The notes: a model not told the origin generated them from the letters alone. A stretch of DNA of 57,474 nucleotides from Candidatus Omnitrophota bacterium (GCA_013202745.1 JABMRJ010000030.1:1-57474); one strand, 5' to 3'; counted from the stretch's first letter, positions 32,116 through 54,232 are shown. A program made the numbers and translations.

Positions 32116-32835
32116 CTATAACTTCCTCTTTTTAGCCATAAATTCTGCAAATTCAAAATCCAGCTTTTCGTCTATATCAACAGATCTCTCTCTTGGCATC
32201 AAATAAGCCGCCGTCATTTTGGTTATAAGCGCATTTTCTTTAAATAGATTGTCTCTCCTTGTCGCGTATATTGCGCCGTTTGGCACCACCATTTTATTAA
32301 GATAGCGCCGAAGCGCCCTCTTCCCGTTCCATCTTCCGGGGATATAGGGTTCTGCCTTATTCCTGCCTTTGAGTGTAAACATCCATTCGGGATATTCCGT
32401 AATCTCTACAGCCGAAAAGACGGAGCCTAAATTTTTGTTTCTTAAAAGAAGCTTAATACATTCGTCTATGTCGCTTCCTTTACAAAATGGCGATGTAGGC
32501 TGCAGGGTGACGATAATATCAATCTTCTTGCCTTCCTTCTTTTCGATAAAGTAAGCTGCGTGTTGGGTAACCAGCGTGGAGGCGCAATCCCCTGAGATAT
32601 TCTCTGGCCGACTAAAAGGAACTTCCCCGCCGTATTTTAACGCAGCAGCCTTTATCTTTGGATGGTCTGTTGAGACTATCACCCTGCCCAATAGCCTGCT
32701 TTCAAGCGCTGCCTTTATCATATACGAAATAAGCGGCTTGCCGCACAGCCGTTTTATATTCTTAAGCGGCAGCCTTACGGAACCGCCTCTTGCGTGTATC
32801 ACCCCTCTGATATTAGCATACTTTGTATTCTTCAT
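32116..32835 (-). CDS. Acylneuraminate (NulO) cytidylyltransferase, NeuA/LegF-like
   Basis: ..VIHARGGSVRLPLKNIKRLCGKPLISYMIKAALES.. (CTP_transf_3 pattern). Confidence 0.8.
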   Translation of the reverse strand: MKNTKYANIRGVIHARGGSVRLPLKNIKRLCGKPLISYMIKAALESRLLGRVIVSTDHPKIKAAALKYGGEVPFSRPENISGDCASTLVTQHAAYFIEKKEGKKIDIIVTLQPTSPFCKGSDIDECIKLLLRNKNLGSVFSAVEITEYPEWMFTLKGRNKAEPYIPGRWNGKRALRRYLNKMVVPNGAIYATRRDNLFKENALITKMTAAYLMPRERSVDIDEKLDFEFAEFMAKKRKL

Positions 32836-33978
32836 TTATAATTTACCCTGAAAATTTTTTGTAGTCTCCTTATAGGCCTCCCACTGCCCTACATCCAGCC
32901 ACGATTTTTCACTTACGGGGTAGACACCGATCTTACATTTCTTTCTTTTAAGTTTTTTGATAAAGTCGGTAATGTGAAAAGTTCTGTCTCTTGGAATATA
33001 CCTTAATGTCTTCTTATCTACAAGATACATCCCTGTATTGACCAGGAAATCATATTCGGGTTTTTCCTCTATCTTTTTTAACTCCCCTCCGGAATTTATG
33101 TCTACGACTCCATAAGGGACTACAAAATGCTGCATTGAACATATTATTGTTAAGTCGTAACCATTCTTTTTATGAAAGCTATATATGTCATCATATCTGG
33201 CTTTTATAATAGTGTCGCAATTTGACAAAAAGAATGTATTCGAAATGGTCCGGGGTAAAAGTTTTAATCCCCCTACTGTTCCAAGCGCCCTATCTTTTTC
33301 GTAAATATATTTTACCTTGTATTCTGCTCCGCTATTATCAAAATACGACTTTATCATCTCGCCCTTGTAACCTATAATAAAATAGATGGCGTCTGTTATA
33401 TGCTCCCTGAAATTATCTATTATCAACTCGATGACAGGCTTATCACCGACAGGTATTAAGGCCTTCGGCAATATTTTAGTAAAAGGATCGAGCCGGCTGC
33501 CTTGGCCGCCGGCCATTACAACGAGGGGTATCTTAAGGGCCTGCGCCTTACTTGGCATGCCGGCTTCATCCTTTATCACATCGCTCCAGAAGAGAAGATT
33601 TACAATTCTTTTGTTTTCATCTACTATAGGTAAGGAATTTACACCTGCCTCCAGCATAATCTTCCTTATCCTTCTTTTGGATGTATACCTGTCAACATAG
33701 ACGGGGTTATCATTATAGATCTTATCAACCTTTGCGCCCAAATCACCGTCAGTAAGTATCCAGCGCCGTATGTCTCCGTCTGTAATAGTGCCTATGAGCT
33801 TACGTTTCTTATCGGTAAGAAAGAGTATCTTCCTGGATCCCTTATCCATATGCTTCATGGCATTCTTTATTGTATATTTGCCTGTTATAAAAAGATCTTC
33901 CAATTTTTTTGTCATATTTTCACCATTCCCTTTATTGCCAGTTTTATATTCTATGTAACCTGGTGCCTGAGACACCAC
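32836..33978 (-). CDS. CBS-domain nucleotidyltransferase (PtmE-like sugar-1-phosphate nucleotidylyltransferase)
   Basis: N-terminal tandem CBS-like region (..LIGTITDGDIRR.., ..NSLPIVDENKRIVNLL..), then ..VVMAGGQGSRLDPFTKILPKALIPVGDKPVIE.. Confidence 0.8.
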   Translation of the reverse strand: MVSQAPGYIEYKTGNKGNGENMTKKLEDLFITGKYTIKNAMKHMDKGSRKILFLTDKKRKLIGTITDGDIRRWILTDGDLGAKVDKIYNDNPVYVDRYTSKRRIRKIMLEAGVNSLPIVDENKRIVNLLFWSDVIKDEAGMPSKAQALKIPLVVMAGGQGSRLDPFTKILPKALIPVGDKPVIELIIDNFREHITDAIYFIIGYKGEMIKSYFDNSGAEYKVKYIYEKDRALGTVGGLKLLPRTISNTFFLSNCDTIIKARYDDIYSFHKKNGYDLTIICSMQHFVVPYGVVDINSGGELKKIEEKPEYDFLVNTGMYLVDKKTLRYIPRDRTFHITDFIKKLKRKKCKIGVYPVSEKSWLDVGQWEAYKETTKNFQGKL

Positions 33979-35168
33979 TTACCGTTCTCCTTCTTCCATA
34001 AATGCGGCGACCTGAATCTATCGCATAACTCAAGGAAATGCTCAGGATCCATTCCGATATATTCCATAACCTCTTTGAAATATTGTTTCGGGAATTCACC
34101 GTCGAAGCGCTTTACAAGCGCCACTCCCTCTTGGCGCGTCAGGTGCTTATTTCTTATCTCCTGAGACGCCTCATAGGTAGTCCTTCCGATCCCAAATTTT
34201 ATAAATGTTGTGTAAAAATGAAAACCGTCTATACGGTCATCGAGGCTGTTGTATTTGCTATATGTCCCCTCTGTGCGTACCGGATTGGCCTGGAACCCTG
34301 TGTGTTCGGCAGCATAATAGTATGCCTCCTGAGGCGTCCATTTGATGTAATATCCCAAATAATTGACTATAAGGTTAATCTTCTCAATTTCCTTATTGTC
34401 CATTGGCAAAAACGCGCTTAATTCATTGAGGGACAATTTATGCTTTTCGATAAGCTCGGGTATCGATACTCCTCCCATGTATACCTTTGATAAGTCCTTC
34501 ATGGCGTAATAGGACTTATCGCGCAAAGAAGTTGAGTTATCAGCTACAGGATTACCGTATTCTGCCTCATTTTCGCCGTAAAATATTAAAGGTATCCCAT
34601 ACTTTGCCGCTACCTTAGGAACAATATTCTTCTGCCCCAATATAAAGGTCTGGAAAGGATGTAAGAGGTTCTCTATGGAAAGGCGGGTAAGAAGCTTCAT
34701 GGCTTTGCCATTTGGCTTGAATGTAATATTATCGAACCCCCCTATTTCAATCCAATTGCGGAAATTCTTCCAGCCTATATCAGTATATATAACAGGAGGC
34801 CATGTCACTGTAAGCGGATGCATGCCATATTTATATTTCAATATATGGGCGGCATATGCGCTGTCCTTGCCTCCGCTTCCGGGAACGACACAATCGTAAT
34901 AGCCGTCATTCCTTCGGTGCTTATCCAGAAGCCTTAGTAGCTCCTCTTCTCTTTGTTTCCAATCTATGCCCTCTTTCACATCTGCATAACGGCATGCATC
35001 ACAGATACCTTCTTCGTCAATATGCATACTCCTGTGCTTATGGTCCTGTGAATGTTTGAATTCATGAGTAGATGTCGGACGCTGATTCGACATCACACAC
35101 CGCTTGCAGAATATAACCTTTTCAGGCAGTCCGTATCGCGCTTCCAGGATCTTCTCTGTATCTATCAC
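33951..35168 (-). CDS. N-acetyl sugar amidotransferase (WbuX/WbpG/PseA family)
   Basis: ..FCKRCVMSNQRPT.. zinc-ribbon-like start, and PP-loop ..VVPGSGGKDSAYAAHILK... It sits immediately downstream of HisH/HisF paralogs. Confidence 0.8.
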   Translation of the reverse strand: MIDTEKILEARYGLPEKVIFCKRCVMSNQRPTSTHEFKHSQDHKHRSMHIDEEGICDACRYADVKEGIDWKQREEELLRLLDKHRRNDGYYDCVVPGSGGKDSAYAAHILKYKYGMHPLTVTWPPVIYTDIGWKNFRNWIEIGGFDNITFKPNGKAMKLLTRLSIENLLHPFQTFILGQKNIVPKVAAKYGIPLIFYGENEAEYGNPVADNSTSLRDKSYYAMKDLSKVYMGGVSIPELIEKHKLSLNELSAFLPMDNKEIEKINLIVNYLGYYIKWTPQEAYYYAAEHTGFQANPVRTEGTYSKYNSLDDRIDGFHFYTTFIKFGIGRTTYEASQEIRNKHLTRQEGVALVKRFDGEFPKQYFKEVMEYIGMDPEHFLELCDRFRSPHLWKKENGKWCLRHQVT

Positions 35169-35850
35169 CTTTAGACCTCCTTGTACTTAATGCAAAATTC
35201 TTATAAATTTTCAAACCGCTTAAAGCGCTCCTTTCAGGGTGAAATTGGCACGCAAATATATTTTTATAACGTAGGCTTGAACAAAACCTGATATTTCCGT
35301 ATTGGGATTCTGACAGAACTATATCTTTCTCTTGGGGGTCTGCATAGAAAGAATGGACAAAATACATATATTCCCCTCCCTCCAGACCGTCAAGCAGCGT
35401 CTCGGACCACATATCGCTGTTCTCTTTATGCGCCGATTTATATATACGGTTCCATCCTATCTCCGGAACTTTTAGCCTTCCGCCCAGCTGATCAACCGGG
35501 TTGCCAAAATGCTTAACCTCTCCTTTTATGATATCCAGCCCCTCATGGCACCCGAACTCCATGCTCTTTGACATAAGCAGCTGCATACCGAGACATATAG
35601 CTAAAAAAGGCTTCTCCATGCCCGCTATTTCGCGCAAAACACTGCTTAAGCCGAGATCCCTCAATGCGTTCATTGCATCTGGGAATGCCCCGACACCCGG
35701 CAGGATCACGGCATCTGCTGAGCGGATCTTTTCTTCGGATGATGTCAGCACGCCCTTAAGCCCCACGCTCAGACAGGCATGTTTCACGCTGAATAGATTA
35801 CCCATGCCATAATCTATAATTGCAGCTATAGGGCTATCTTTATCATGCAT
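35122..35850 (-). CDS. Imidazole glycerol phosphate synthase HisH-like glutamine amidotransferase (WbuY-like)
   Basis: ..IIDYGMGNLFSV.., ..AICLGMQLL.. (nucleophile Cys), ..CQFHPERS.. Confidence 0.85.
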   Translation of the reverse strand: MHDKDSPIAAIIDYGMGNLFSVKHACLSVGLKGVLTSSEEKIRSADAVILPGVGAFPDAMNALRDLGLSSVLREIAGMEKPFLAICLGMQLLMSKSMEFGCHEGLDIIKGEVKHFGNPVDQLGGRLKVPEIGWNRIYKSAHKENSDMWSETLLDGLEGGEYMYFVHSFYADPQEKDIVLSESQYGNIRFCSSLRYKNIFACQFHPERSALSGLKIYKNFALSTRRSKGDRYREDPGSAIRTA

Positions 35851-36715
35851 AAAGCTTCTCCGCTTTGTAACCGCGGCACTCTATACCGCTTCTCATAAGG
35901 AATTCCTTTATATCCTGAAGCGACGTATGGTTTATCATTGAAAATGAACGTTTATTTCTCATATATTCTATATTGCCTTCACCGGAGAAATCACCCTTGT
36001 TTTCATGCTTCATAACAATGTCGTAATGGAGTATTGACGCAACGCTTACGGCGTCTGCCCTTCCTTGTGTAATTACGTCTTTAATATCTTCTTTATTGCC
36101 GGCGCCGCCGCATGCTATAACCGGGATGGAAACGGATTCTGCAATCTTTCTTGTAAGTTCTAAGTCAAGCCCCTTTCCCGTTCCTTCTCTATCAATAGAT
36201 GTAATAACTATCTCGCCTGCGCCCAATTCCGCTGCTCTTACCGCCCACTCCATGGCATCTACCCCGGTGCTCTCCCTGCCGTTATCGGTATAGGCCTCGT
36301 AACCGCCATCCGGCTTTCTTATCGCTTCAATAGAAATAACTATAGTGGATGAGCCAAAACGCTTTGATGCCCTGCGTATCAATTCGGGATCTTGCATAGC
36401 TGCGGTATTTATGGAGACCTTATCAGCCCCGGCCCTAAGAACGGCCTTTATATCATCTATATTTCTCAATCCACCCCCTACGGTAAGAGGAATGAAAATC
36501 TCTTTCGCGGTCCGCTCTACTATGCCCAGAAGGTTGTTCCTGCCGTATAGACTCGCAACAACATCCATATAGATGAGCTCGTCTGCCCCGTTTTCGTAAT
36601 AATGCCGCGCAAAATATTCGGGCTTGCCTAAAACGCGCAGGCCTTCCATGTGGATCCCTTTTACCAGATTCGGCCCCTTTATGTCGAGCCTCGGTATAAC
36701 TCTTATATACGCCAT
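35843..36715 (-). CDS. HisF-like cyclase subunit (WbuZ-like)
   Basis: ..RVIPRLDIKG.., ..ADELIYMDV.., ..IPLTVGGGLRNIDD.., ..PVIACGGAGN.. Confidence 0.85.
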   Translation of the reverse strand: MAYIRVIPRLDIKGPNLVKGIHMEGLRVLGKPEYFARHYYENGADELIYMDVVASLYGRNNLLGIVERTAKEIFIPLTVGGGLRNIDDIKAVLRAGADKVSINTAAMQDPELIRRASKRFGSSTIVISIEAIRKPDGGYEAYTDNGRESTGVDAMEWAVRAAELGAGEIVITSIDREGTGKGLDLELTRKIAESVSIPVIACGGAGNKEDIKDVITQGRADAVSVASILHYDIVMKHENKGDFSGEGNIEYMRNKRSFSMINHTSLQDIKEFLMRSGIECRGYKAEKLYA

Positions 36716-37881
36716 CTTATATTGTAAAATTCCTTTTTTAACAACAGCCCCTTTACTGTCTTTATTATCTTTGCTATTCTTTTTGAAGCGCTTCCATCCC
36801 CGTATGGGCTCTTTATTCTCTTTAAGGTTTTCTGGAATTCCGGCGTATAGAGTTTTCTAATGGCCTTTTTTATATCTTCCTTACGGGGGCTGCAATCGAT
36901 AATACTCTCTGTCCTGATCCTCCCCTTTTGCCTATCGCCTATATTGACCGTGCCTATCTTAAAGCTTGGGGCCTCAATGATACCGCTCGATGAGTTTCCA
37001 ACAACTGCATCGACAAACTGCATTGTTGAAAGGTACTTTCGCTGCCCCATGGAGATAAATGCCTTTGATTTATACGGCCTCTTTGCAACATACTTATCTA
37101 TCATCTTATTTATTATCCTGCCCTCTGTATCAGCGTTTGCCATCGTAAATATTATATGTGTACCTTTAAGTGAATCCAACACATTAAGCAGGTTCCCAAA
37201 CTGCTTTTTCGATGTCCCCTTTTCAAGAGTAACAGGATGGAACGTAACAAGCAGATTGCGTTTTGCAAATTTAAAACTTAATTCCTTTTCCAGATCTTTT
37301 TTGGATAAAAACTTCATCCTTTTTATACTATCCAGCCCTGTTGCCCCTACGTTAAATACCCTGTCAGGCTGCTCGCCCAGCTGTATCACTCTCTTTCTGT
37401 ATTCGTCCGTAGATGTAAAATGGAGATGGCTCATCTTTGTTATGGAATGCCTGATCGCCTCATCTATCACGCCAAAGGTCGCCTCGCCCCCGTTTATGTG
37501 TGCTATAGGTATTCTCCATATCATAGCAGCGGTTGCGGCTGAAAAGGCCTCAAACCTATCGCCCAAAATCACTACCATGTCTGGTTTTAACTTCACAAAA
37601 GCCTTACTCAATTTTAAAATAGCAGAAGAGACAGACCTATTTATGCCCACAGGCGTATCATCCTCTAGAAAAATTTTTACTTTTTCGTCTATCTTAAGCC
37701 CGTCCCTTTCGATCTCCTTATATGTTGACCCGAACTCAGGTAAAAGATGCATGGCAGAAGCTACTATCTGGAGCTTAAATGCCTTATCCTTCCTTACCTC
37801 TTCCATAAGCGGTCTTAAAAGGCCGTATTCGGCCCTTGTACCCGTAAAGACGCAGATCTTTTTCTTACTTTTTTTAGTCAT
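36703..37881 (-). CDS. UDP/GDP-N-acetylglucosamine 2-epimerase (hydrolysing), NeuC/LegG-like
   Basis: ..KKICVFTGTRAEYGLLRPLMEEV.., ..IAHINGGEATFGVIDEAIRHSITKMSHLHF.. Confidence 0.9.
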   Translation of the reverse strand: MTKKSKKKICVFTGTRAEYGLLRPLMEEVRKDKAFKLQIVASAMHLLPEFGSTYKEIERDGLKIDEKVKIFLEDDTPVGINRSVSSAILKLSKAFVKLKPDMVVILGDRFEAFSAATAAMIWRIPIAHINGGEATFGVIDEAIRHSITKMSHLHFTSTDEYRKRVIQLGEQPDRVFNVGATGLDSIKRMKFLSKKDLEKELSFKFAKRNLLVTFHPVTLEKGTSKKQFGNLLNVLDSLKGTHIIFTMANADTEGRIINKMIDKYVAKRPYKSKAFISMGQRKYLSTMQFVDAVVGNSSSGIIEAPSFKIGTVNIGDRQKGRIRTESIIDCSPRKEDIKKAIRKLYTPEFQKTLKRIKSPYGDGSASKRIAKIIKTVKGLLLKKEFYNIRWRI

Positions 37882-37883
37882 AG

Positions 37884-38555
37884 TTATTTAGACAACTCCT
37901 TTAAAACCATGAAGCTCTCTGCATATTTAAAACCAGCTGTTGCGCCCCTGAAGGTTGCGAGAGTTTTTATGTTTTTTACGCTTCTTGGAAACGGGTGTCT
38001 TCCTATCTCATTCTTAAAGATCTTCATGATCTCGATCTTTTTCGCTATAAATTCGCTTATATCCACAAAATAATTCGGCACAAATACAGAATCTTTCGTG
38101 GGAGGTGCAAATTCTGTTTCGCTTATCGTCTCCATCATCAAAACCTTGTTCAGGAATGGATAGCGGAACGTCTTTGTGCAGCTGTATGCGGCCTCGAAGA
38201 TTACTTTGTGATCACTGTGAACATCTCCGTTAAACGGCAGATAAAGTATATTCGGTTTAATGGCCTTGAATACTGTTGATATACTCTTAACCATCTCTTG
38301 CTTCGGAAACTCCTTCACCTGTGTCGTAGGAATATCAAGCATCTTAACGGCCTCAAATCCATACATGTTTGCAACAGACTTTATCTCCTTATCCCTTCTG
38401 GCTATCTCATCCTTCTTAAAGCCCTGCTCGCTTTTTATGCTCGTGGCAATAAGCCAGTATATCTTATCGCCTTTCTTTTTATGCTTTAGAAGGGAGCCTC
38501 CGCAGCCTAGGGTCTCATCATCCGGGTGGACAGCAAGGATCAGTACCTTATTCAT
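37884..38555 (-). CDS. PIG-L/LmbE-family N-deacetylase
   Basis: ..VLILAVHPDDETLGCGGSLLKH.. and ..GDVHSDHKV... Clear paralog of the 47844-48542 product. Confidence 0.85.
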   Translation of the reverse strand: MNKVLILAVHPDDETLGCGGSLLKHKKKGDKIYWLIATSIKSEQGFKKDEIARRDKEIKSVANMYGFEAVKMLDIPTTQVKEFPKQEMVKSISTVFKAIKPNILYLPFNGDVHSDHKVIFEAAYSCTKTFRYPFLNKVLMMETISETEFAPPTKDSVFVPNYFVDISEFIAKKIEIMKIFKNEIGRHPFPRSVKNIKTLATFRGATAGFKYAESFMVLKELSK

Positions 38556-39436
38556 TATAGACGGTCTCCTTTTCTTGGTAATTTTGCAAAATCATGTTCT
38601 GTAAGTAAGATTGCATTGTCGCCGCATTTAACCAATATATTGCCTTCGGCCGCATCGAGAACTTTGCCGCAATCAATCTCTTTTGAATTTACCATTACCT
38701 CCTTTGCAGCCCAGACCTTTATTCCTTTACCTTTATATGAAACATGCGCACCTACATAAGGCCTTGTGAGGGCCCTTATAAGGTTATACACTGTCCTGCT
38801 GTCAGCCCTGAAGTCGATCTCGCCATCCTTCTCTACTCTCTTCCTCCAATAACCCGATCTTGCAGGATCCTGCGGAATCCTATTAAATGTTCCGTCTTTC
38901 AGCTTCGGCAGGAAATCCTCTATCTGCTCCAGGGCTCTCTTTGTAACCCTATCACAAAGAGACCTCGCATTATCACTATAATCTATTAAAACCTCTGCCT
39001 GGCTCAATATATCACCATCGTCAAGGCCTTTCTTAATAAAGAAGAAGGTCGAAGCGGTCTTATCCAATCCTTTCGCGAGGGCCCATATAAGCGGGTGCCT
39101 CCCTCTGTTTTCCGGCAGCCTGGCAGGATGGTATCCTATTACACCCATAGGGGCGATTTGCAATACTTCCTCTTTTAACAGATGTGAAAACCCGAAACAG
39201 AACATAATATCAGGCGCTATCCGCCTCATCCAATCTATGTTTTCTTTTGAATTGATATCTTCTACATGCTTATAAGGAATATCCTTCTCGGTACAGACTG
39301 GAGCAAGGTCGGCAAAATCTGCATTTATGCCTGCGTCTTTTTTAGTAACAACACCTGCTATATCTGCATTCAGCTTTATCAGCTTTAAAAGTGCCTTTTT
39401 GCTGAACTCAACAGAACCTATAAATAGAATCCTCAT
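38555..39436 (-). CDS. Formyltransferase-fold protein with C-terminal Fmt-like domain; catalytic Asn position replaced
   Basis: ..MGVIGYHPARLPENRGRHPLIWAL..FFFIKKGLDDGDIL... His and Asp are kept. The residue two before His is Gly rather than Asn. Confidence 0.7.
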   Translation of the reverse strand: MRILFIGSVEFSKKALLKLIKLNADIAGVVTKKDAGINADFADLAPVCTEKDIPYKHVEDINSKENIDWMRRIAPDIMFCFGFSHLLKEEVLQIAPMGVIGYHPARLPENRGRHPLIWALAKGLDKTASTFFFIKKGLDDGDILSQAEVLIDYSDNARSLCDRVTKRALEQIEDFLPKLKDGTFNRIPQDPARSGYWRKRVEKDGEIDFRADSRTVYNLIRALTRPYVGAHVSYKGKGIKVWAAKEVMVNSKEIDCGKVLDAAEGNILVKCGDNAILLTEHDFAKLPRKGDRL

Positions 39437-40434
39437 AGCTCTATTTGCTCATCCTTCTTAAAGTCTTTCTTTGCCGCTCTACCTATTACATCGGGCCACC
39501 TTAGGGGGCTTATACCTGTACCTGGTCTCTTTGCCCCAATATTCCTGTCGCTAAACAATTCCCCCTCCTTAATATCGCGCTCGGCAACTATGCTCTTGCG
39601 TACTACAGGGATATTCCTAAGCTCGGAAGCGCTTGGCCTTTTTATGCCACTGCCAAGCCCTTTTTCCACGGCCCTAATCGCAGAGACCATCTCTTTTAGT
39701 TCATTCGGCTCCAGAGAGGCGCGATGGTCCGGGCCGGCCATCCCTCTATCAAGGGTAAAGTGTTTCTCGATAACAGTTGCCCCTAATGCTGCTGCAGCAA
39801 TCGGTAAGGCAATTCCCGGCGTATGGTCTGAATAACCAACCTCTACATTAAGTTTATCTCTTATAGTAATCATTGCCGATAGATTGGCATCTTCAAATGG
39901 TGTCGGATATTCTGTATTACAGTGCAGGACGGTTATATCATCCTTATGCAATCCTGCCCCCTTTAATATATCAAGTGCCTTTGCCACCTCTCTTAACTCC
40001 GACATACCGGTAGATAGTATAACCTTCTTATTCAAGGATCCTATTCTTTTAAGAAAAGGGAAATTCGTTATCTCGCCGGATGGTATTTTGTATATCTTCA
40101 AGCCCAGCTCTTCGAGCCGCTCTACGCTCTCTATGTCAAATGGGCTCGACAAGAATAATATGCCCTTCTTGGTGCAATAATTCATAAGTTCCCTATGGGC
40201 ATCTATATCCAATTCCAGCCTCTTTAACATATCGAGGTGTGACTCCCTGCCGTTTGTGCTTCTTTTTTGATATTCCGCCTTAGAGGCAAAACGGCTTACT
40301 ATCCTTTCTGCTCTGAAGGTTTGAAACTTTACGGCGTCTGCCCCGGCATCATAAGCAGCATTTACCATCCGCATGGCTATTCCCAGATCTCCGTTATGAT
40401 TAACGCCTGCCTCTGCTATTATAAAGATACTCAT
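39433..40434 (-). CDS. N-acetylneuraminate-type (NulO) synthase, NeuB/LegI-like, with C-terminal SAF domain
   Basis: ..MSIFIIAEAGVNHNGDLGIAMRMVNAAYDAGADAVKFQTF.. and a C-terminal ..RKSIVAERDIKEGELFSDRNIGAKRPG.. Confidence 0.9.
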   Translation of the reverse strand: MSIFIIAEAGVNHNGDLGIAMRMVNAAYDAGADAVKFQTFRAERIVSRFASKAEYQKRSTNGRESHLDMLKRLELDIDAHRELMNYCTKKGILFLSSPFDIESVERLEELGLKIYKIPSGEITNFPFLKRIGSLNKKVILSTGMSELREVAKALDILKGAGLHKDDITVLHCNTEYPTPFEDANLSAMITIRDKLNVEVGYSDHTPGIALPIAAAALGATVIEKHFTLDRGMAGPDHRASLEPNELKEMVSAIRAVEKGLGSGIKRPSASELRNIPVVRKSIVAERDIKEGELFSDRNIGAKRPGTGISPLRWPDVIGRAAKKDFKKDEQIEL

Positions 40435-40437
40435 ACA

Positions 40438-42864
40438 TTACTTTCCTTTAAAGATTAGATAGTTCCCCATCACAAGACAATCCAGGCCGCATGAAAAGAA
40501 TGTCCGCACTGCATCCTGGGGTGAGCAGACTATCGGTTCGCCATTTATATTAAAAGAGGTATTCAAGACCACAGGGATACCCATCACCCTGTTAAATTCC
40601 GATATCAATCCGTAGAAACTCGGATTCATCTCTTCCGAAACGGTCTGGAGCCTTCCCGTCCCGTCAATGTGTACAACCGCCGGAATAAGCCCTTTCTTAT
40701 CTTTTTTGACCTTGCAGACCTTCTCCATAAAAGGCACGCTGTTGCCTCCGGATGTCTCAAAATAATCTTTTGTATACTTCTCCAATACCGAAGGTGCAAA
40801 AGGACGGAAGGTCTCTCTATACTTAACCGCCTTGTTTACGATATCTTTAGTCTTTACCTGGCGCGGATCTGCCAGGATGGAACGGTTACCAAGCGCCCTT
40901 TGGCCAAACTCCATACTCCCCTGGAACCAGCCTATAAGCATGCCTTCTGAGATAAGTCTTGCCGTTATCTTCTCGATATCCTTATGGAAGGTATATTTAA
41001 GCTTATGTTTATCGAGGACCTCCTTAATCTCTTTGTTAGAAAATTCCGGACCCCAATAATTGTGCTGCTGGAAATGGCGTTTTTTATGGCCGAGTATGCA
41101 ATTGTATAAATAGAGCGCTCCTCCTATAGAAGTACCGCTGTCGTCTGGGCACGAAGAGATGAAGAGCTCTTTAAAGGGCGTCAAGTCCAGCAGTTTCCCG
41201 TTAAATACGGAGTTCATAGCGCATCCTCCGGAAAGAACGAGTTTGCTGCATCCGGTCGCGGCATGGAGGTGATTCAGCATATGGACGGCTATCTCTTCGA
41301 ATATTTGCTGTGCAGCAACCGCTATCTGCGTATGCCTATCACTTATCTTGCTATCCTTTTCCCTTGCCGGCCCTAAAAGTTCTATGAGCTTTTCAGTATA
41401 CATCGTATGCTGCCTGTCAAAGAGATAGAAGGTAAAATATGATAGGTCAAGCTCAAAGGTGCCGTCCTTCTTCAATGTTATGATACTCTTAAGCTTCCTA
41501 TAATATTTATTGTCTCGCTTGCCATAAGAGGCCAATGCCATGACCTTCCACTCATCGGAATCAGGCCTGAATCCCAGGTATTCGGTAATGGCCCCGTAGA
41601 ATAACCCGAGTGAATGCGGCATCATAACAGATTGAATCTTTTTTATGCTATTACCTTTCCCTTTCGCAAATAGACATGTTTCATTTTCACCCCTCCCATC
41701 CATCGTAAGTATTGCAGCCTTCTCAAATGGAGAGAGTAAAAATGCATTTGCGGTATGCGCATCATGGTGATTAATAAAAAAGAGGGAGAGATCCTTGCCA
41801 TTCAGGGAGATCTTCTGTTCTATGTGCTTAGGATCTGAGCTGTAGAACTGGTTCAAGAGACAGCTTGGTGTTGAATATAGATATTCACCGCGCCATCTAA
41901 TAGGTTTCGAATATCTCATACTTGCCGATTTTATATGTAATGCCGGATTCCACGACATGACGATGTAGTCAATGTCATTAATCGTTATCCCTGCTCTATC
42001 AAGACAATAAGCTATCGCTTTATTAGGAAATGCGTTAGACATCTTCTGTCTGTCGAATCTCTCTTCCGGAGCCGCAGCAATAATCTTACCGTCTTCTATC
42101 AGGGCCGCTGAAGAAATCCAGATATCCGGGCTTATACCGAGTATTCTCACGCCATAACCTCTTTTTTTAGAGGTTAACTGTTTCTTTCTAGTTACCCTGT
42201 TATCGGGATCATGCTCAAATCTATAACCGCTCAGATCGATATAGGCACCAGGCATATCAGGATAAGTGGATGCCTTTATCCTTTTGGCTATCTCTTTTTT
42301 TGACATCCTGGGGCTTATTTTGCATAATGCCTCTAAATCATTACGCTTATAAGGCTTTCTCTTCCACTTTTCAGTGCAATGCGGAAGTTCTTTTCTATCC
42401 AAAACAAAATTCATAACATCTAAGAATGCCGAAAACATTTCGTCGTAGCTTTTCATGCTCAGGTTATATATCGAATCGGATTCCAGCAGACGAAACCTCT
42501 TTACCGATATTATCTTGCCCGTATCAACCTTTTTGTCCATGATATGGGCTGTAACACCATAGGTCTTTTCGTTGTTGTAGACGGCAAAATTAAAACAACC
42601 TATACCAGGATACTCCGGAGGGCCGGGATGGAAATTGATATTCCAGAGCTTTGTCCTCTTTAGAATCTTACTGGGAATTATCCATGGTGATAGATAGGAT
42701 ATTATTATATCTGGAGATTCATTATAAGGTTGCTTTGGAAAAGGATCCTTCACCCCTCCCGGATATATAGTTAATTTCTCTGAATGCCTCTTTAAGTACT
42801 CTATTACCTCTTTTACTGTATACTTTTCGGGTTTTGTGAATAATGTGACTTTCATCTTAAACAT
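40438..42864 (-). CDS. Fusion protein: N-terminal formyltransferase-fold domain plus NodU/CmcH-family carbamoyltransferase
   Basis: Residues about 1-230 contain ..LWNINFHPGPPEYPGIG..GVTAHIMDKKVDTGKII... The remaining roughly 570 aa contain ..ILGISPDIWISSAALIEDGKIIAAAPEERFDRQK.., ..FFINHHDAHTANAF.., ..LNTSFNINGEPIV.. (carbamoyltransferase N and C domains). Confidence 0.8.
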   Translation of the reverse strand: MFKMKVTLFTKPEKYTVKEVIEYLKRHSEKLTIYPGGVKDPFPKQPYNESPDIIISYLSPWIIPSKILKRTKLWNINFHPGPPEYPGIGCFNFAVYNNEKTYGVTAHIMDKKVDTGKIISVKRFRLLESDSIYNLSMKSYDEMFSAFLDVMNFVLDRKELPHCTEKWKRKPYKRNDLEALCKISPRMSKKEIAKRIKASTYPDMPGAYIDLSGYRFEHDPDNRVTRKKQLTSKKRGYGVRILGISPDIWISSAALIEDGKIIAAAPEERFDRQKMSNAFPNKAIAYCLDRAGITINDIDYIVMSWNPALHIKSASMRYSKPIRWRGEYLYSTPSCLLNQFYSSDPKHIEQKISLNGKDLSLFFINHHDAHTANAFLLSPFEKAAILTMDGRGENETCLFAKGKGNSIKKIQSVMMPHSLGLFYGAITEYLGFRPDSDEWKVMALASYGKRDNKYYRKLKSIITLKKDGTFELDLSYFTFYLFDRQHTMYTEKLIELLGPAREKDSKISDRHTQIAVAAQQIFEEIAVHMLNHLHAATGCSKLVLSGGCAMNSVFNGKLLDLTPFKELFISSCPDDSGTSIGGALYLYNCILGHKKRHFQQHNYWGPEFSNKEIKEVLDKHKLKYTFHKDIEKITARLISEGMLIGWFQGSMEFGQRALGNRSILADPRQVKTKDIVNKAVKYRETFRPFAPSVLEKYTKDYFETSGGNSVPFMEKVCKVKKDKKGLIPAVVHIDGTGRLQTVSEEMNPSFYGLISEFNRVMGIPVVLNTSFNINGEPIVCSPQDAVRTFFSCGLDCLVMGNYLIFKGK

Positions 42865-43949
42865 CCTTTCAAGATTTTACAAGCAGAATATATATCATCT
42901 TCTGAGTTTAATGTTGAACATGGCAGGCACAGCCCTCTTTCGTAAATTCTATATGAGTTTTTATAATCATGGTTTTTGTACCTTTTGTATGGCGGAAATT
43001 CGACTATCGGCATAAAGATTCTTCTCGTAGTAACACCCTTATTTTTAAGGTTGCTCTGGAGTAAAGGTATATCGATATCTTTAAGCAATATGCATACAAG
43101 CCAGTAAGAGCTATTTGCGTTAGTGAGTGTTTCCTGGAAAGATATCTTCTTTATACTTTTTAATTCATTCCGGTATATCTCATTAAATCTTTCTTTCTTC
43201 TTCAGAAATCCTTCCAGTCTCTTTAGCTGGGCCAATCCGAGCGCTGCTTCTATATTTGTCATCCTGTCATTAAAACCTATCTCAGGGTGGTAGGACTCAT
43301 TCGATCTATCCTTTGCCTGATTGGCCAAAAACTTTATGTGCTCTAATTTCTTCGGGCTATTCCCAACAATCATCCCGCCGCCGCCGGTGGTAATAACCTT
43401 ATTTCCATTAAAACTGAAACACCCGAAGTCTCCCAATGTCCCTGTATAATTACCATTATATTTTGCGCCCAGGCTCTCTGCGGCATCTTCAATCACATAT
43501 ATATTATGTTTCTTTGCAATCCGCAGGATCTGATCCATGTTGCAGGGGTTTCCATAAAGGTGGACCGCTATTATCACCTTTGTCTTGTCTGTTATGGCCT
43601 TTTCTACGGCAGCTGCATCTATATTCCATGTCACGGGGTCGATATCTACAAATACGGGCTTTGCATTGACATATAAGACCGGGTTTATACTGGCGATAAA
43701 TGTCAGGGCAGGCACGATTACTTCATCCCCTTTACCTACACCCAGCTCGTGTAAAACCATATGTATAGCCGTGGTTCCGCTTTGCGTGGAGACGGCCTTC
43801 TTTACCCCGAGGAGTTTGGCAAATTCCGCTTCAAATTCTGCTACAAACGGCCCGACGCTCGAAACATAGCCGCTATCTATAGCGTTATTCAGATATTTTT
43901 TTTCCAACTCCCCTACATTCGGCGCGTCCAGAAAGATTTTTTTATACAT
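42852..43949 (-). CDS. DegT/DnrJ/EryC1-family PLP aminotransferase (LegC-like)
   Basis: ..SGTTAIHMVL.., ..VIEDAAESLGA.., ..FSFNGNKVITTGGGGMI.. (PLP Lys). Confidence 0.85.
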   Translation of the reverse strand: MYKKIFLDAPNVGELEKKYLNNAIDSGYVSSVGPFVAEFEAEFAKLLGVKKAVSTQSGTTAIHMVLHELGVGKGDEVIVPALTFIASINPVLYVNAKPVFVDIDPVTWNIDAAAVEKAITDKTKVIIAVHLYGNPCNMDQILRIAKKHNIYVIEDAAESLGAKYNGNYTGTLGDFGCFSFNGNKVITTGGGGMIVGNSPKKLEHIKFLANQAKDRSNESYHPEIGFNDRMTNIEAALGLAQLKRLEGFLKKKERFNEIYRNELKSIKKISFQETLTNANSSYWLVCILLKDIDIPLLQSNLKNKGVTTRRIFMPIVEFPPYKRYKNHDYKNSYRIYERGLCLPCSTLNSEDDIYSACKILKGCLR

Positions 43950-44940
43950 TGTATATACCCGGTTTATAAATTTTCATGTTGTCTTTATTCCTAAACCACT
44001 CTATAGTTTCATCTATGCCTTTGTCAAGTGAGTATCTCGGCTTCCAACCTGTCAACTCTGTAATCTTTTTGTTGCTTCCCAAAAGTTCCATTACCTCGGA
44101 CTTTTCCGGCCTTATTCTTGCATTATCACATATTATCTTTGCCCCGGGGTTTATCTTCCCTATAATCTTCTTCCCCAGCTCTCCTATTGTAACTTTTTCA
44201 CTGCTTGCAATATTGATCTCTTCGCCTATAGTATTGTCAGAACTTGCAATGGCTATGAAAGCATCGCACACATCTTTTACGAAATTAAAATCTCTGGCAG
44301 GCTCCAAATGACCAAGCTTTAACTCCCTGCCGCCGTTTAATAATTGCGTAATGATCGTAGGTATAACCGCCCTTGCAGACTGCCTGGGGCCGTAGGTATT
44401 GAACGGCCTGACTATAGTAACGGGTGCATTAAATGACCTGTAAAATGACTCTGCTATTTTATCCGCACCTATCTTTGTCGCGCTATATGGCGACTGCCCC
44501 TGCAGGGGGTGTGTCTCTTCTATGGGTATGCTTACTGCAGTACCATAGACCTCAGATGTGGAAGTCATAAACAACCTCCCTGCATTAAGGTCTATACCTG
44601 CCTGAAGTATGTTCAATGCGCCTTTTATATTCGTATCTACATAAGAATCGGGTGCATGGTAAGAGAATGGTATGCCGACAAGCGCCGCTAGATGAAAAAC
44701 TGCGTCAACGCCCTTCATGGCCTTTCTCACGCTATTTGAGTCCCGCACATCTCCGGGAAATACCTCGATTTTTTCTATTTTTTCACGGCTGAATCCATCG
44801 AGCCAGCCCCAGGAGTTAAATGAATTATAGAAAACAAATGCCCTGACCCTGCAGCCCTCATCCAGCAAGCGTTCAACGAGATGGCTTCCTATGAATCCGT
44901 CTGCGCCCGTTACAAGAACCTTCTTATTTTTTAGATTCAT
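43942..44940 (-). CDS. NAD-dependent nucleotide-sugar 4,6-dehydratase (LegB-like SDR)
   Basis: ..KVLVTGADGFIGSHLVERLL.., ..FYNSFNSWGWLD.., catalytic ..SPYSATKIGADK.. Confidence 0.8.
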   Translation of the reverse strand: MNLKNKKVLVTGADGFIGSHLVERLLDEGCRVRAFVFYNSFNSWGWLDGFSREKIEKIEVFPGDVRDSNSVRKAMKGVDAVFHLAALVGIPFSYHAPDSYVDTNIKGALNILQAGIDLNAGRLFMTSTSEVYGTAVSIPIEETHPLQGQSPYSATKIGADKIAESFYRSFNAPVTIVRPFNTYGPRQSARAVIPTIITQLLNGGRELKLGHLEPARDFNFVKDVCDAFIAIASSDNTIGEEINIASSEKVTIGELGKKIIGKINPGAKIICDNARIRPEKSEVMELLGSNKKITELTGWKPRYSLDKGIDETIEWFRNKDNMKIYKPGIYNV

Positions 44941-46610
44941 TTATCTTTTCTCCAATCTTTCTCTCTTTTTGCCTTTTCAGGAAAAAGGTATGTTTCCATA
45001 AATTCGTTATTAGGATGCTGTGGGTTCTTTGACAAATAACTTAAAAGCTGCCCTTCATCAAAGATTACCCGGTTCTGACCATTAAATTCCATATTAACAA
45101 AATCACATCTCTTTTTTAAAAGCTCCATCGGTTCAGGAAAAGGCCTAATGGGGCTGCCTGCCATACAAAAAGCGATTACCAGCTTATTCGTACATAGTGT
45201 TATTGGAAAGGCTGTGGTCTTTACATGTGTAAAAATAAAGGCGTCGGCAAGCGACAGGTAATCTTCGAGATAACCCTTCAATACCTTAACTCTGCTTTTA
45301 AAAATACTCTCGACTTCCGGTAAATTTTCAGGATGCGCCTTATAAAATACCTCATAACCGGCATCTTTGAGAAGATCTATGATGCGCAGTTCAAGATCTA
45401 ACTGCATAAATCCTAAAGCGGACGGAGTCAGATGTTTTCTTAAATGTGTATAAAGATAACCCACCATCATTACCTTCTTAACCTCCTTCGGTAATTTTTT
45501 CTTGTTATACATCTTGTACCATTTATAGTATTCATTGCTGTCAGCGGATTTGATTACGGTATTAACGGGCCTAAGAGGTTTATGGCTCTTTTTAATCTTC
45601 TCAAAGAGTTCAATGCTCTTGGTAGTATATGTAATAAATTCATCCGAAAGCGCAAATTCTGAAAATGCCATTGTCGGAGTATCAAATAGACCTATGTGGC
45701 CGCCATGGCTAAAACTTGTAATCCTCCCTCCTTGTCGGCGAACTGCTATAGAGAGCGCTCTAATAAACGGACTATTTAAATTAGCTGTCAATAAATGAAT
45801 TTTTTTTCTTCTCATTTTGATTTCATCTTTTAATGCTCCGAGTATTCTGGCAGAAAATATTAATTCGTTTTGCATCATTTGTCTTAGATGATCAATATGC
45901 ACATTAAAGATCTCAATCTCATTTTTGACGGCTATCGATCTCAATTCATCGGCAAAGGCCCTCGATATCTCTTTTATGGCATTCTCTTTCTTATTGGGTA
46001 TCATATAAGTGAATCTTTTCGGCAACCAATCGGACGGTGATGTAAAATAGGTATAATATGGCGCCTTTTTAATATATTCACCCGTAAGAGAGCTTACTGA
46101 ACCGCAGAATAATGCGTTCTCTTCATTATCTTTTGGTTTAAAGCATTTAAGAGGATTTGAGTTATATATTACATTCTTGGCAATCTTTTTTATAGTGATC
46201 TCTGTATTCTTGCAAAAGGTGTAATTACAAAGATCACACATAGGCCTACCTATGTTCGGTATGGGATTTTCCGCGGGATAATGGTCTGTTGTGAGCTTCT
46301 TATACCAGGGCGTATGATCTGTATATAAAATACGCATTCCCAGCCTACCTATCTTCTGTATTACCTTCAAGGCATGTAAAAAATGGAGGTATTCAGTAAC
46401 CAGGTACCGCTGAATAAGAAATATATCGCCTATCTCTTCCGGCTGGGTGGTTATATATCTCCTTAAAGAGGCGCTGATATCCTCATATAACGCAAAGAAT
46501 TCGCTGTCGGATACAGGCCAAAAGAAATCATTTCGCCATTTCTCTATTCCGTATTCTTTAATCTTTATTATATCAACCGGGAAATATCTATCTTTGCAGC
46601 CCTGTGCCAT
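44937..46610 (-). CDS. Hypothetical protein; C-terminal GT-B-like half with KxHP-type motif (candidate CMP-NulO transferase)
   Basis: 557 aa, soluble. ..KIHLLTANLNSPFIRALSIAVRRQGGRITSF.. and ..GYEVFYKAHPENLPEV..ADAFIFTHVKTTAFPITLCTNKLVIAF... Distant by-eye similarity to the 29761-31314 product. Confidence 0.35.
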   Translation of the reverse strand: MAQGCKDRYFPVDIIKIKEYGIEKWRNDFFWPVSDSEFFALYEDISASLRRYITTQPEEIGDIFLIQRYLVTEYLHFLHALKVIQKIGRLGMRILYTDHTPWYKKLTTDHYPAENPIPNIGRPMCDLCNYTFCKNTEITIKKIAKNVIYNSNPLKCFKPKDNEENALFCGSVSSLTGEYIKKAPYYTYFTSPSDWLPKRFTYMIPNKKENAIKEISRAFADELRSIAVKNEIEIFNVHIDHLRQMMQNELIFSARILGALKDEIKMRRKKIHLLTANLNSPFIRALSIAVRRQGGRITSFSHGGHIGLFDTPTMAFSEFALSDEFITYTTKSIELFEKIKKSHKPLRPVNTVIKSADSNEYYKWYKMYNKKKLPKEVKKVMMVGYLYTHLRKHLTPSALGFMQLDLELRIIDLLKDAGYEVFYKAHPENLPEVESIFKSRVKVLKGYLEDYLSLADAFIFTHVKTTAFPITLCTNKLVIAFCMAGSPIRPFPEPMELLKKRCDFVNMEFNGQNRVIFDEGQLLSYLSKNPQHPNNEFMETYLFPEKAKREKDWRKDK

Positions 46611-47184
46611 AAATCCTTATCCTTTTCCTCTGCTTAAGAAACTCTTGTTGAGAAATGCCCATATATATTTTATCCATATACCTGCCTTCAAAATTATAAA
46701 GATCCTTTATTCTCCCTTCAACCTTAAACCCGACCTTTTTGTACAGCTTTATCGCCGCTACATGCTTTTGGCAAACACCGAGAAAAACCTTATTCAAATT
46801 CAATTTCGTAAATGAATATTCCAGAAGAAGGCGGCAGGCCTCCTGTCCGTAGCCCATGCACCAGCATCTTTTCTCACCTATCATGATTCCAAGGTCACCA
46901 TATCGATGTGTCCAATTTATCTTACCCAACTTAACATTACCTATATGAATATTTTCCTTTTTCGTAACTATAGCAAACATAATATTATCTTTAGATTTTT
47001 GCATATTCTGAAAATATTTTTGTAAACTAGTATATGTGGTTGGAGAACCCTTGTTTATCATGTATTTAACAACGCTGTTGTCATTGAGCCATGACAGGTA
47101 CCTTCTGTTTATATCCTTTTTTACAATAGGCCTAAGATATATCTTATCACCTGCAAGAAGAGGTCCTTTATGCCTTTTTCTCAT
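46588..47184 (-). CDS. GNAT N-acetyltransferase, RimJ/RimL/PseH-like
   Basis: ..IYLRPIVKKDINRRYLSWLNDNSVVKYM.. and ..RCWCMGYGQEACRLLLEYSF.. Confidence 0.75.
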   Translation of the reverse strand: MRKRHKGPLLAGDKIYLRPIVKKDINRRYLSWLNDNSVVKYMINKGSPTTYTSLQKYFQNMQKSKDNIMFAIVTKKENIHIGNVKLGKINWTHRYGDLGIMIGEKRCWCMGYGQEACRLLLEYSFTKLNLNKVFLGVCQKHVAAIKLYKKVGFKVEGRIKDLYNFEGRYMDKIYMGISQQEFLKQRKRIRIYGTGLQR

Positions 47185-47187
47185 AAA

Positions 47188-47865
47188 CTATTTTCCACTA
47201 CACTTTTCTTTACGAATCTTCAGGGTGTACTTATATCCCTTGTGCCTAAAGAAAGCCGGGAACCTCTTATTATTCACAATTCTTAATAAGTTAAATTGCT
47301 CTTTTAGCGTCTTATCCATATCCAATGCACTATCAACCGGCTTCCTCCTTTTGTAAAAAGTAGACTTACCCTTCTGTTTTTCTGGTCTCAATCTTTTATA
47401 TTCAGTTAAAAATCTTAAACAGAGGTCTAGCGTTTTTCTCGCCTGCTTTTCTCTTATCTCACTATTCAGTTCGTGGCCTTTCATTTTTATATAATCTTTT
47501 AAGTACAAATCTCCATCGTCAATTTTTTCATTTGCATCGAATAAAACTATCGGCACTACATTCTTGCCTTCCAGTACCTGCCAGAATAATGGTGCCCACC
47601 CTTTACCTTTCGGGAGATCACTCTCGTGTACCACTAAATTATGTTTATGCTTCCGCAAATATCCTGCTCCTATCAGGCGCGTATAATTTAATATAAATAC
47701 TATTTTGTAGTTCTCATCGATCTTTCTGTGATCATAGAATAGCCCGGGCCTTAATCTCTTATTCTTAAGTGTTGCAACGAATTGCCTTGCATAAGGGAGA
47801 AACCAGCTCCCTTTTGAGGTCAATACGGCTACACTCTTAGAATTCATCTTATCACCCTGACGCAT
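47188..47865 (-). CDS. Formyltransferase-fold protein, divergent (catalytic Asn position replaced)
   Basis: ..HNLVVHESDLPKGKGWAPLFWQVLEG..VLFDANEKIDDGDLY... His and Asp are kept. The residue two before His is Val, and RG is replaced by KG. Confidence 0.55.
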   Translation of the reverse strand: MRQGDKMNSKSVAVLTSKGSWFLPYARQFVATLKNKRLRPGLFYDHRKIDENYKIVFILNYTRLIGAGYLRKHKHNLVVHESDLPKGKGWAPLFWQVLEGKNVVPIVLFDANEKIDDGDLYLKDYIKMKGHELNSEIREKQARKTLDLCLRFLTEYKRLRPEKQKGKSTFYKRRKPVDSALDMDKTLKEQFNLLRIVNNKRFPAFFRHKGYKYTLKIRKEKCSGK

Positions 47866-49936: not shown

Positions 49937-49938
49937 AT

Positions 49939-51156: not shown

Positions 51157-51160
51157 ATAT

Positions 51161-54226: not shown

Positions 54227-54232
54227 ATAGAG

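Follow-up and report, generated by a model that had tools for sequence, protein, structure and literature searches.

An in-frame fusion of a putative sugar formyltransferase gene to a TobZ/NodU-type carbamoyltransferase gene in a legionaminic acid cluster of a single Omnitrophota strain

We analyzed a 57,474-nucleotide contig of a Candidatus Omnitrophota bacterium (GCA_013202745.1, JABMRJ010000030.1:1-57474; referred to as the window in the following). An earlier note, made from the sequence alone, had described an 808-codon open reading frame (ORF) at positions 40438-42864 as a fusion of a formyltransferase-fold domain to a carbamoyltransferase, located in a gene cluster for legionaminic acid (Leg), a nonulosonic acid (NulO). 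The ORF is present and intact on the minus strand, all peptide strings quoted in the note were found in it, and its product is identical to NCBI entry NQT06207.1 ([quoted passage not shown]). Both parts of the described architecture reside in this one ORF, as three Pfam domains were detected in it: Formyl_trans_N (PF00551; residues 50-143, 42.9 bits against a cut-off of 26.1, covering profile positions 79-173 of 181), Carbam_trans_N (residues 240-584, 193.4 bits), and Carbam_trans_C (residues 635-806, 227.1 bits), the latter two with full profile coverage. A weak match to PF18216 was obtained in the formyltransferase-fold (FT) half. The fused ORF is composed of the following features:

40438..42864, minus strand: fused ORF, 808 codons, intact; probable start at M4 (42855), giving 805 amino acids (aa)
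42196..42864, minus strand: FT half, residues 1-223, a complete copy of a stand-alone family of ~219 aa; homologues end with "...FEYNPDR*", in register with DPDNR223
42523..42636, minus strand: catalytic core with N77, H79 (NINFHPGPPEYPG) and D114 (KVDTGKII), invariant in alignments A1 and A4 and aligned to "NLHPS...DTG" of WbkC
42195..42197, minus strand: GGG run; one G fewer (in silico edit) gives AGG TAA, a stop right after R223
42151..42195, minus strand: 15-codon linker VTRKKQLTSKKRGYG, read as a translated former intergenic spacer; the other two frames contain stops
42157..42163, minus strand: AAGAGGT, Shine-Dalgarno-like, 6 nt upstream of the internal GTG; a comparable motif is present at 30 of 51 window genes
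42148..42150, minus strand: in-frame GTG (V239), read as the ancestral carbamoyltransferase start, possibly still used; homologues start at the same column
40438..42150, minus strand: carbamoyltransferase half, residues 239-808, TobZ/NodU/CmcH-type, complete, with a Kae1-like domain (41113-42147) and a YrdC-like domain (40447-40962)

The overlap of 13 nt with the preceding aminotransferase gene (LegC) given in the earlier note applies to the first ATG of the ORF. But the homologues of the FT half begin at the second methionine (MKV/MKI..., corresponding to M4; ATG at 42855-42853), which overlaps the LegC stop codon as ATGA, and a GAAAGG upstream of this ATG is better spaced than for the first one (region 42853-42864). 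Since the homologues start there and ATGA start/stop overlaps are typical, the annotated start is probably three codons too long and the true protein probably comprises 805 aa.

The join is end to end: a complete FT gene is followed by 15 translated spacer codons and a complete carbamoyltransferase beginning at its own GTG. In our alignments, the C-termini of 14 stand-alone FT homologues fall at R223, and 13 stand-alone carbamoyltransferases begin with M[RK]ILGIS, in register with V239-RILGIS. The linker in between has no counterpart in either set. Removal of one G in silico resulted in a 223-aa protein ending in DPDNR*, a 41-nt spacer, and a 570-aa ORF starting from the GTG. Because this deletion recreates a TAA exactly where the stand-alone homologues end, a 1-nt insertion that abolished the stop codon and placed the FT gene in frame with its downstream neighbor would be the most economical history. 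When the fusion was aligned jointly with both families of stand-alone proteins (A5), the shorter one came out misaligned (15-19% identity).

An exact look-up of the 808-aa protein in a contig index gave no match. Contigs of the same strain were recovered via the exact flanking LegC and NeuB proteins, namely from JGI 3300032737 and 3300032738 and from the Logan assemblies SRR28106056, SRR28106059, and SRR28106079. Four of these contigs (JGI 3300032737 and 3300032738, Logan SRR28106056 and SRR28106059), which represent four libraries and two assembly pipelines, span the junction; the gene is 100% identical and ungapped in them, and a 65-nt core around the junction is exact. The gene-caller products on the four contigs are 808, 730, 721, and 413 aa long, the last three being cut by contig ends. 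Within the window, minus-strand ORFs cover 99.3% of the sequence, and no gene is broken. Because the junction is identical in four contigs, the fused frame is a reproducible, true consensus of this population.

We subsequently searched for further cases of this fusion. The full-length query resulted in 7062 matches: the 119 listed after the self-match were all stand-alone carbamoyltransferases of 453-590 aa (nearly all ~570 aa) with up to 70% identity, and the best 120 contained no recurrence of the fusion in divergent genomes. The N-terminal 238 residues gave 1158 protein matches, which among the matches listed are mostly ~219 aa long (169-242 aa) and up to 65% identical. A junction-centered query (residues 60-400), chosen so that any fusion would outrank single halves, was used for an exhaustive HMMER search (phmmer) against 1.84 billion cluster representatives; no second FT-carbamoyltransferase fusion was found in the best 150 of 10335 matches, each of which aligns to one half only and in a single stretch. 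The sequence cluster of the fused protein has a size of 1. The earlier note had not recognized this architecture from known NulO pathways and had proposed a search for related domain fusions, and these two very large protein searches did not uncover a second case either. A conserved pair of an FT gene followed by a carbamoyltransferase gene, split elsewhere and joined here, was also considered and rejected, as the two are adjacent in 0 of 160 surveyed loci and co-occur in only five; the carbamoyltransferases of two of the surveyed loci, L004 and L008, belong to a different subfamily (28-29% identity). Since all recovered copies derive from the same strain, the fusion is young and local, that is, a strain-specific, evolutionarily recent one-strain accident rather than an evolved architecture. 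As a singleton, it offers no co-evolution to define an inter-domain geometry. The bifunctional enzyme proposed earlier therefore stands as a single ORF with two modules that appear competent from their sequences, but not as an evolved bifunctional family, given its restriction to one strain and its origin in a 1-nt insertion.

The N-x-H...D pattern reported for the N-terminal domain is intact: N77, H79, and D114 are shared by all 18 family members compared, and the same residues are found in the alignment with WbkC. This half is closely related (up to 65% identity) to more than 1000 stand-alone proteins of ~219 aa, a family with a mean column identity of 57-60%. When the family profile was compared to PDB entries, the best match was the GDP-perosamine N-formyltransferase WbkC (1e-14), followed by WlaRD, ArnA, the F-domain of LgrA, and PseJ. 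An AlphaFold2 model of the FT half (pLDDT 90.1, pTM 0.86) resembled WbkC, Rv3404c, WbtJ, and VioF in Foldseek comparisons (TM 0.70-0.77, E = 1e-13 to 1e-15), with the small C-terminal subdomain included. These four are enzymes of ~240 aa that N-formylate NDP-4-amino-4,6-dideoxyhexoses, the same chemical class as the LegC product. A catalytically dead N-domain, which the earlier note had considered, is not what the alignments and the model suggest, as triad and fold are both kept.

The carbamoyltransferase half is 53-70% identical over its full length to stand-alone proteins of ~570 aa. Its profile matched PDB entry 7xb6 best (1.6e-130), followed by NovN, GdmN, and TobZ (1e-103 to 1e-117); our literature search found no publication on 7XB6. 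The motifs HHxxH, DGxGE, PDDSG, GQRALGNRS, KxRExFRPFAP, HxDGxxRxQT, and NTSFN are kept in the family, and the invariant columns of alignment A3, in register with 7xb6, are H128, H129, H132, D151, E155, D336, D337, R418, K443, R445, H494, D496, and N530-S532. Enzymes of the CmcH/NodU type are an O-carbamoylating class that acts via carbamoyl-AMP (PMC6022934). Orthology to NodU itself was rejected, because the NCBIfam equivalog NF041651 gave only a partial match (147.9 bits against a cut-off of 1000).

For this half, we surveyed 80 metagenome loci that were fetched by profile and encode carbamoyltransferases with 48-63% identity. NulO markers are present in 45 of the 48 loci of at least 8 kb, and NeuB in 37 of them. 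Across distant phyla, the immediate neighbor of the carbamoyltransferase gene is NeuB in 22/80 loci, and NeuB or NeuC in 31/80; PIG-L deacetylases co-occur in 13/80. The carriers include Omnitrophota, Parcubacteria/Giovannonibacteria, Woesearchaeota, Desulfobacter, Pseudodesulfovibrio, and Scalinduaceae. This carbamoyltransferase subfamily is almost an obligate resident of NulO clusters. Full-text literature searches found no link of carbamoyltransferases to the biosynthesis of Leg, pseudaminic acid (Pse), or NulOs, and the association therefore appears undescribed so far.

Two further gene families stand beside these carbamoyltransferases. A class-I methyltransferase of ~301 aa is encoded right next to them in L003 (11741-12646), L165 (4795-5700), L084, L087, and L123-L138, which suggests a carbamoyl plus methyl tailoring pair; the methyltransferase partner of L003/L165 is not found in the window. 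A conserved protein of ~400 aa (66% identity between distant loci) follows the carbamoyltransferase directly in the LegC-to-NeuB slot of L085 (11803-13023), L086 (6119-7336), and L166 (11722-12927). It has an N-terminal hydrophobic segment, an SGNH-like "ILGGSSAWG" motif, and no Pfam match, and the partner found in L085/L166 is likewise missing from the window.

The genes surrounding the fused ORF are, in order of transcription:

43942..44940, minus strand: LegB-type NAD-dependent 4,6-dehydratase (TIGR04180, 480.9 bits, cut-off of 475 passed)
42852..43949, minus strand: LegC-family aminotransferase, makes the 4-amino sugar (TIGR04181, 415.8 bits, just below the cut-off of 420; DegT_DnrJ_EryC1, 371.7 bits)
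39433..40434, minus strand: NeuB/LegI-type NulO synthase (TIGR03569, NeuB_NnaB, 498.7 bits)
38555..39436, minus strand: second formyltransferase, full-length ArnA/Fmt-like with N- and C-terminal domains (profile matches)
37884..38555, minus strand: PIG-L family de-N-acetylase (PF02585, 78.8 bits)
36703..37881, minus strand: NeuC/LegG-type hydrolyzing 2-epimerase (TIGR03568, 502.7 bits)
33951..36715, minus strand: WbuZ (HisF-like), HisH, and WbuX, an amidotransferase set linked to acetamidino formation (WbuZ 271.8 bits, below the cut-off of 299.7; HisH 195.5 bits; WbuX 358 bits, above the cut-off of 203)
32116..33978, minus strand: PtmE-like CBS plus NTP-transferase protein and CMP-NulO cytidylyltransferase (CMP-NulO synthetase; profile matches)

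This gene set is a complete GDP-type Leg cluster without LegH, the acetyltransferase of the hexapeptide (PglD) type. The location of the fused ORF between a LegC-like aminotransferase and a NeuB-like synthase, as previously described, is borne out by the family models that scored both neighbors. The ORF holds the gene position of LegH, after LegC and before the synthase and the 2-epimerase, and profile annotation detected no hexapeptide or PglD-type gene among the annotated ORFs of the window (6.8-55.9 kb), in agreement with the LegH position assigned in the earlier note. This equivalence is positional only: the fused ORF itself has no Hexapep or PglD_N match in Pfam and thus no sign of the LegH fold.

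The Fmt/ArnA-like gene and the PIG-L gene recur together in L003, L165, L010, L015, L030, L034, and L119; with L008 included, this pairing is conserved across Leg-type clusters of Planctomycetota, Kapaibacteria, and Omnitrophota, where the 219-aa FT family is often present as well. The pair points to N5 deacetylation followed by re-formylation, or to a transient formylation resembling that of ArnA/ArnD. Directly upstream of the Leg genes lies a Pse-type NulO set (46588-55012, minus strand), which includes PseG (159.7 bits, above cut-off), a PseH-like GNAT protein, a second NeuB-family synthase, a cytidylyltransferase, and an ATP-grasp protein, as well as a PIG-L deacetylase, a 225-aa FT-fold gene, a B12-radical-SAM enzyme, and a LarA_N (lactate-racemase-like) protein. 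Judged from its gene content, the strain is apparently equipped to produce two NulOs that differ in their tailoring. Between the two sets, a 557-aa ORF (44937-46610, minus strand) has no Pfam or NCBIfam match; gene calling on L171, another, independent contig of this strain, recovered it as well, again without a Pfam match. A plus-strand ORF of 343 aa (36860-37891) is antisense to nearly the whole NeuC/LegG gene and is probably a non-coding shadow ORF.

In total, the 57-kb glycan locus contains four FT-fold genes (22639-23343, 38555-39436, 42196-42864, and 47188-47865), three PIG-L de-N-acetylases (27264-28175, 37884-38555, and 47844-48542), three GNAT/FemAB-like genes, the WbuXYZ set, and an Asn-synthase-like amidotransferase, so that by gene content the window would be an unusually dense toolkit for editing the N-acyl groups of amino sugars. 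The N-domain of the fusion was rejected as a duplicate of the short FT-like gene at 47188-47865, since the two share no BLASTP similarity and the best PDB match of the latter is a different Fmt-like protein.

The loci of the FT family itself, recovered by family profile, are informative about the first half of the fusion. NulO markers are present in 54 of the 67 such loci of at least 8 kb; LegC is located directly upstream of the FT gene in 15/80 loci and NeuB directly downstream in 12/80. In at least 11 of 83 FT-family loci, a stand-alone 219-aa FT gene is immediately flanked by LegC and NeuB, and none of these loci has an adjacent carbamoyltransferase. The order LegB-LegC-[FT]-NeuB-NeuC was found in L001, L002, L004-6, L009, L014, L017, L019, L032, L037, and L174, and occurs without any carbamoyltransferase, for example, in the complete Omnitrophota genome CP070780.1 and in L002. 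In many LegB-LegC-X-NeuB clusters, the FT family is the only N-acyltransferase candidate. The earlier note had used the LegH slot as an argument for a fused enzyme that might N-carbamoylate, but the stand-alone genes filling this slot show that the argument applies to the FT half alone.

A formyl group in place of acetyl at N7 has a precedent in Pse, where it is introduced by PseJ (PMC11040635). In Ca. Kuenenia, CMP-NulOs with one N-formyl group and one free amine were measured and linked to a Leg cluster that also encodes a deacetylase and a formyltransferase (preprint 10.64898/2026.04.20.719630), and the FT-family member of the sister genus, Ca. Brocadia, sits in a Leg cluster of this type. 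The FT half is probably a LegH substitute that yields N7-formyl Leg, and the ~219-aa family would be the usual LegH substitute in many uncultivated lineages, for which we predict N7-formyl Leg. Elsewhere, this family is fused to PglD/LegH-type hexapeptide acetyltransferases (in either order), ATP-grasp, GT2, or methyltransferase domains, but never to a carbamoyltransferase; such fusions were seen in the proteins P0242, P0266, P0268, P0288, and P0281 (also P0241, P0255, and P0332). Where FT and a PglD/LegH-type domain co-occur, FT is no simple LegH replacement.

We propose, with a probability of roughly 0.6, that the ORF is a recent, strain-specific fusion of two adjacent tailoring genes of a GDP-linked Leg pathway, the FT half leading to N7-formyl Leg and the carbamoyltransferase half modifying an intermediate of the Leg pathway, most likely at a hydroxyl group. 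The FT half would act as an N10-formyl-tetrahydrofolate-dependent sugar 4-N-formyltransferase on the LegC product, NDP-4-amino-4,6-dideoxy-GlcNAc, so that N4 would be formylated in place of the missing LegH acetylation and the final sugar would carry an N7-formyl group. In the second half, the YrdC-like domain would convert carbamoyl phosphate and ATP to carbamoyl-AMP, from which the Kae1-like domain would move the carbamoyl group onto a Leg-pathway intermediate. Going by the known family members, the carbamoyl group would most likely be accepted by a hydroxyl (O4 or O8) of the nonulosonate in its free or CMP-activated form, and less likely by the amine freed by the neighboring PIG-L enzyme. 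The two halves are probably independent catalytic modules, and initiation at the internal GTG may yield the carbamoyltransferase as a separate product as well.

For the carbamoyl group, we lean somewhat toward transfer to oxygen, by analogy with the characterized relatives. As inferred from the established Leg pathway, the sole free hydroxyl of the nucleotide-hexose intermediates is O3, which is needed free for closure of the NulO ring. These intermediates therefore lack a hydroxyl that could be spared, so that a carbamoyl group on oxygen would have to be placed at O4 or O8 of the nonulosonate itself, either free or CMP-activated. In the window, both nitrogens can already be accounted for by the FT domain and by the Fmt-like enzyme together with PIG-L.

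Several observations weigh against the proposed model. The genes in L003/L165 are arranged as LegB-LegC-PtmE-carbamoyltransferase-methyltransferase-NeuB-NeuC-Fmt-PIG-L, those in L085/L086 and L166 as LegB-LegC-carbamoyltransferase-[~400-aa protein]-NeuB-NeuC, and no LegH, GNAT, or FT-family gene was detected in any of these loci. A carbamoyltransferase that follows LegC without a recognizable N-acyltransferase fits N-carbamoylation better than O-carbamoylation. The acyl-transfer enzymes of the window (FT domain, Fmt-like enzyme, carbamoyltransferase, and WbuXYZ) outnumber the obvious acceptor nitrogens, and their assignments are therefore not unique. The loop after the catalytic histidine of the FT family is an invariant HPGPPEYPG instead of the canonical HxSLLPxxRG, which bears on the predicted folate binding, and the C-terminal fusion may affect the dimerization typical of small sugar formyltransferases. 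The functions of both the FT and the carbamoyltransferase family are predicted from homology, and translation as one polypeptide is predicted from the ORF. Finally, the four independent contigs all come from the same strain, perhaps from the same site, which bears on the fixation of the fusion.

N-carbamoylation is the less probable alternative. The carbamoyltransferase half would then place a ureido group on N7 (the LegC amine) or on N5 (the amine freed by PIG-L), the FT half would formylate the other nitrogen, and the fusion would couple both N-acylations. This would explain the carbamoyltransferase genes that directly follow LegC, or LegC and PtmE, upstream of NeuB in the loci lacking a recognizable N-acyltransferase, and would agree with the amine-freeing PIG-L enzymes in 13/80 loci, with the existence of free-amine NulOs at the level of CMP-sugars (preprint 10.64898/2026.04.20.719630), and with the nucleotide-hexose precursors, on which only O3 is free and must remain so. 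However, all solved and characterized relatives are O-carbamoyltransferases, N-carbamoylation is assigned to the unrelated OTC/ATC fold (review PMC6022934), a GNAT gene and a WbqC-like gene adjoin the carbamoyltransferase in L111, the acyltransferases missing from L085 and L166 could be represented by the SGNH-like ORFs of ~400 aa, and the two nitrogens in the window require no acyl-transfer enzyme beyond the FT domain and the Fmt-like protein. If N-carbamoylation nevertheless took place, the whole NulO-associated subfamily (in Omnitrophota, bacteria of the candidate phyla radiation, DPANN archaea, sulfate reducers, anammox bacteria, and marine metagenomes) would make ureido Leg, a never-described class of nonulosonic acids; the TobZ/NodU fold would be extended to the N-carbamoylation of sugars, and the fusion would tether both N-acylating activities of a diamino sugar in this strain.

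An ordinary O-carbamoyltransferase acting on a non-NulO sugar, with an incidental position in the Leg operon, is improbable: such a role would fit the many glycosyltransferase and tailoring genes of the window, a 57-kb mosaic glycan locus, and the highly shuffled gene order in NulO clusters, but homologues with at least 48% identity lie within NulO clusters at 45 of 48 loci of sufficient length and abut NeuB or NeuC in 31/80 loci from distant phyla. It is very improbable that the N-domain is degenerate, serving as an adaptor or for substrate binding in a protein that acts only as a carbamoyltransferase. The Pfam match covers only part of the profile (79-173 of 181), the N-terminal subdomain lacks ~30 residues relative to classical members, and the HPGPPEYPG loop is non-canonical; against this, N77/H79/D114 are invariant in a highly conserved stand-alone family of more than 1000 proteins, the confidently modeled full fold resembles active 4-N-formyltransferases of similar size, and the family is the sole N-acyltransferase candidate in many LegB-LegC-X-NeuB clusters. 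Least credible is a frameshift artefact of sequencing or assembly, which the earlier note had raised, with a spurious extra G in the consensus of the metagenome-assembled genome joining two separate genes. One base in a GGG run would explain the join, a TAA is present where the stop is expected, shifted out of frame by one base, and the fused protein is a singleton among about 15 billion sequences, but the exact 65-nt core, the ungapped identity of the gene in four contigs from four libraries and two pipelines, and the absence of other broken genes from a window with 99.3% coding cover largely refute this explanation.

Both halves of the fusion resemble known enzymes. The FT half shares the fold, size class, aligned Asn-His-Asp triad, and predicted acceptor class with WbkC (GDP-perosamine) and with VioF, WbtJ, and Rv3404c (dTDP-Qui4N), but differs from them by an identity of only ~18-21%, a shorter N-terminal subdomain, the HPGPPEYPG loop, and its occurrence in NulO rather than deoxyhexose clusters. 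Like PseJ (profile E = 1.9e-8), it has a formyltransferase fold and would replace an N-acetyltransferase step in a pathway for a 5,7-diamino-nonulosonate; PseJ is distant, however, aligns over its N-terminal ~130 residues only, and belongs to the UDP-linked Pse pathway rather than to LegB/LegC clusters. The carbamoyltransferase half matches TobZ, NovN, GdmN, and 7xb6 over both domains and its full length, and the shared motifs therefore suggest the same carbamoyl-AMP mechanism (PMC6022934). Enzymes of the TobZ class act on antibiotics or Nod factors, whereas the subfamily described here is tied to NulO clusters.

With ArnA, to which direct matches are weak, the fused ORF would have in common that a domain for N-formylation of a 4-amino sugar is joined to another enzyme of the same pathway. 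But the ArnA fusion is ancient and conserved and has a dehydrogenase/decarboxylase as partner, whereas the present one involves a carbamoyltransferase, owes its domain order and linker to accident, and occurs in a single strain. By its description, the Leg cluster of Ca. Kuenenia stuttgartiensis (SugarBase preprint, 2026) resembles the window in its Leg genes and in a formyltransferase and a deacetylase between legC and neuB; neither a carbamoyltransferase nor a fusion is reported there.

The fusion event itself is of limited importance, being a single-strain accident, but it acts as a "Rosetta stone" that ties a TobZ-type carbamoyltransferase to the N-acylation step of Leg synthesis. Its lasting value lies in two family-level inferences, a 219-aa FT family that replaces LegH and a NulO-associated carbamoyltransferase subfamily. 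Cultured carriers of a carbamoyltransferase homologue with 54-56% identity, such as Desulfobacter latus (P0068), provide an experimental handle on the latter. Nonulosonic acids are found on flagella, S-layers, capsules, and lipopolysaccharides, where they govern recognition by phages and the immune system. Carbamoylation (+43 Da) of a NulO would give rise to a new epitope at the cell surface, which could be sought in glycomics data.

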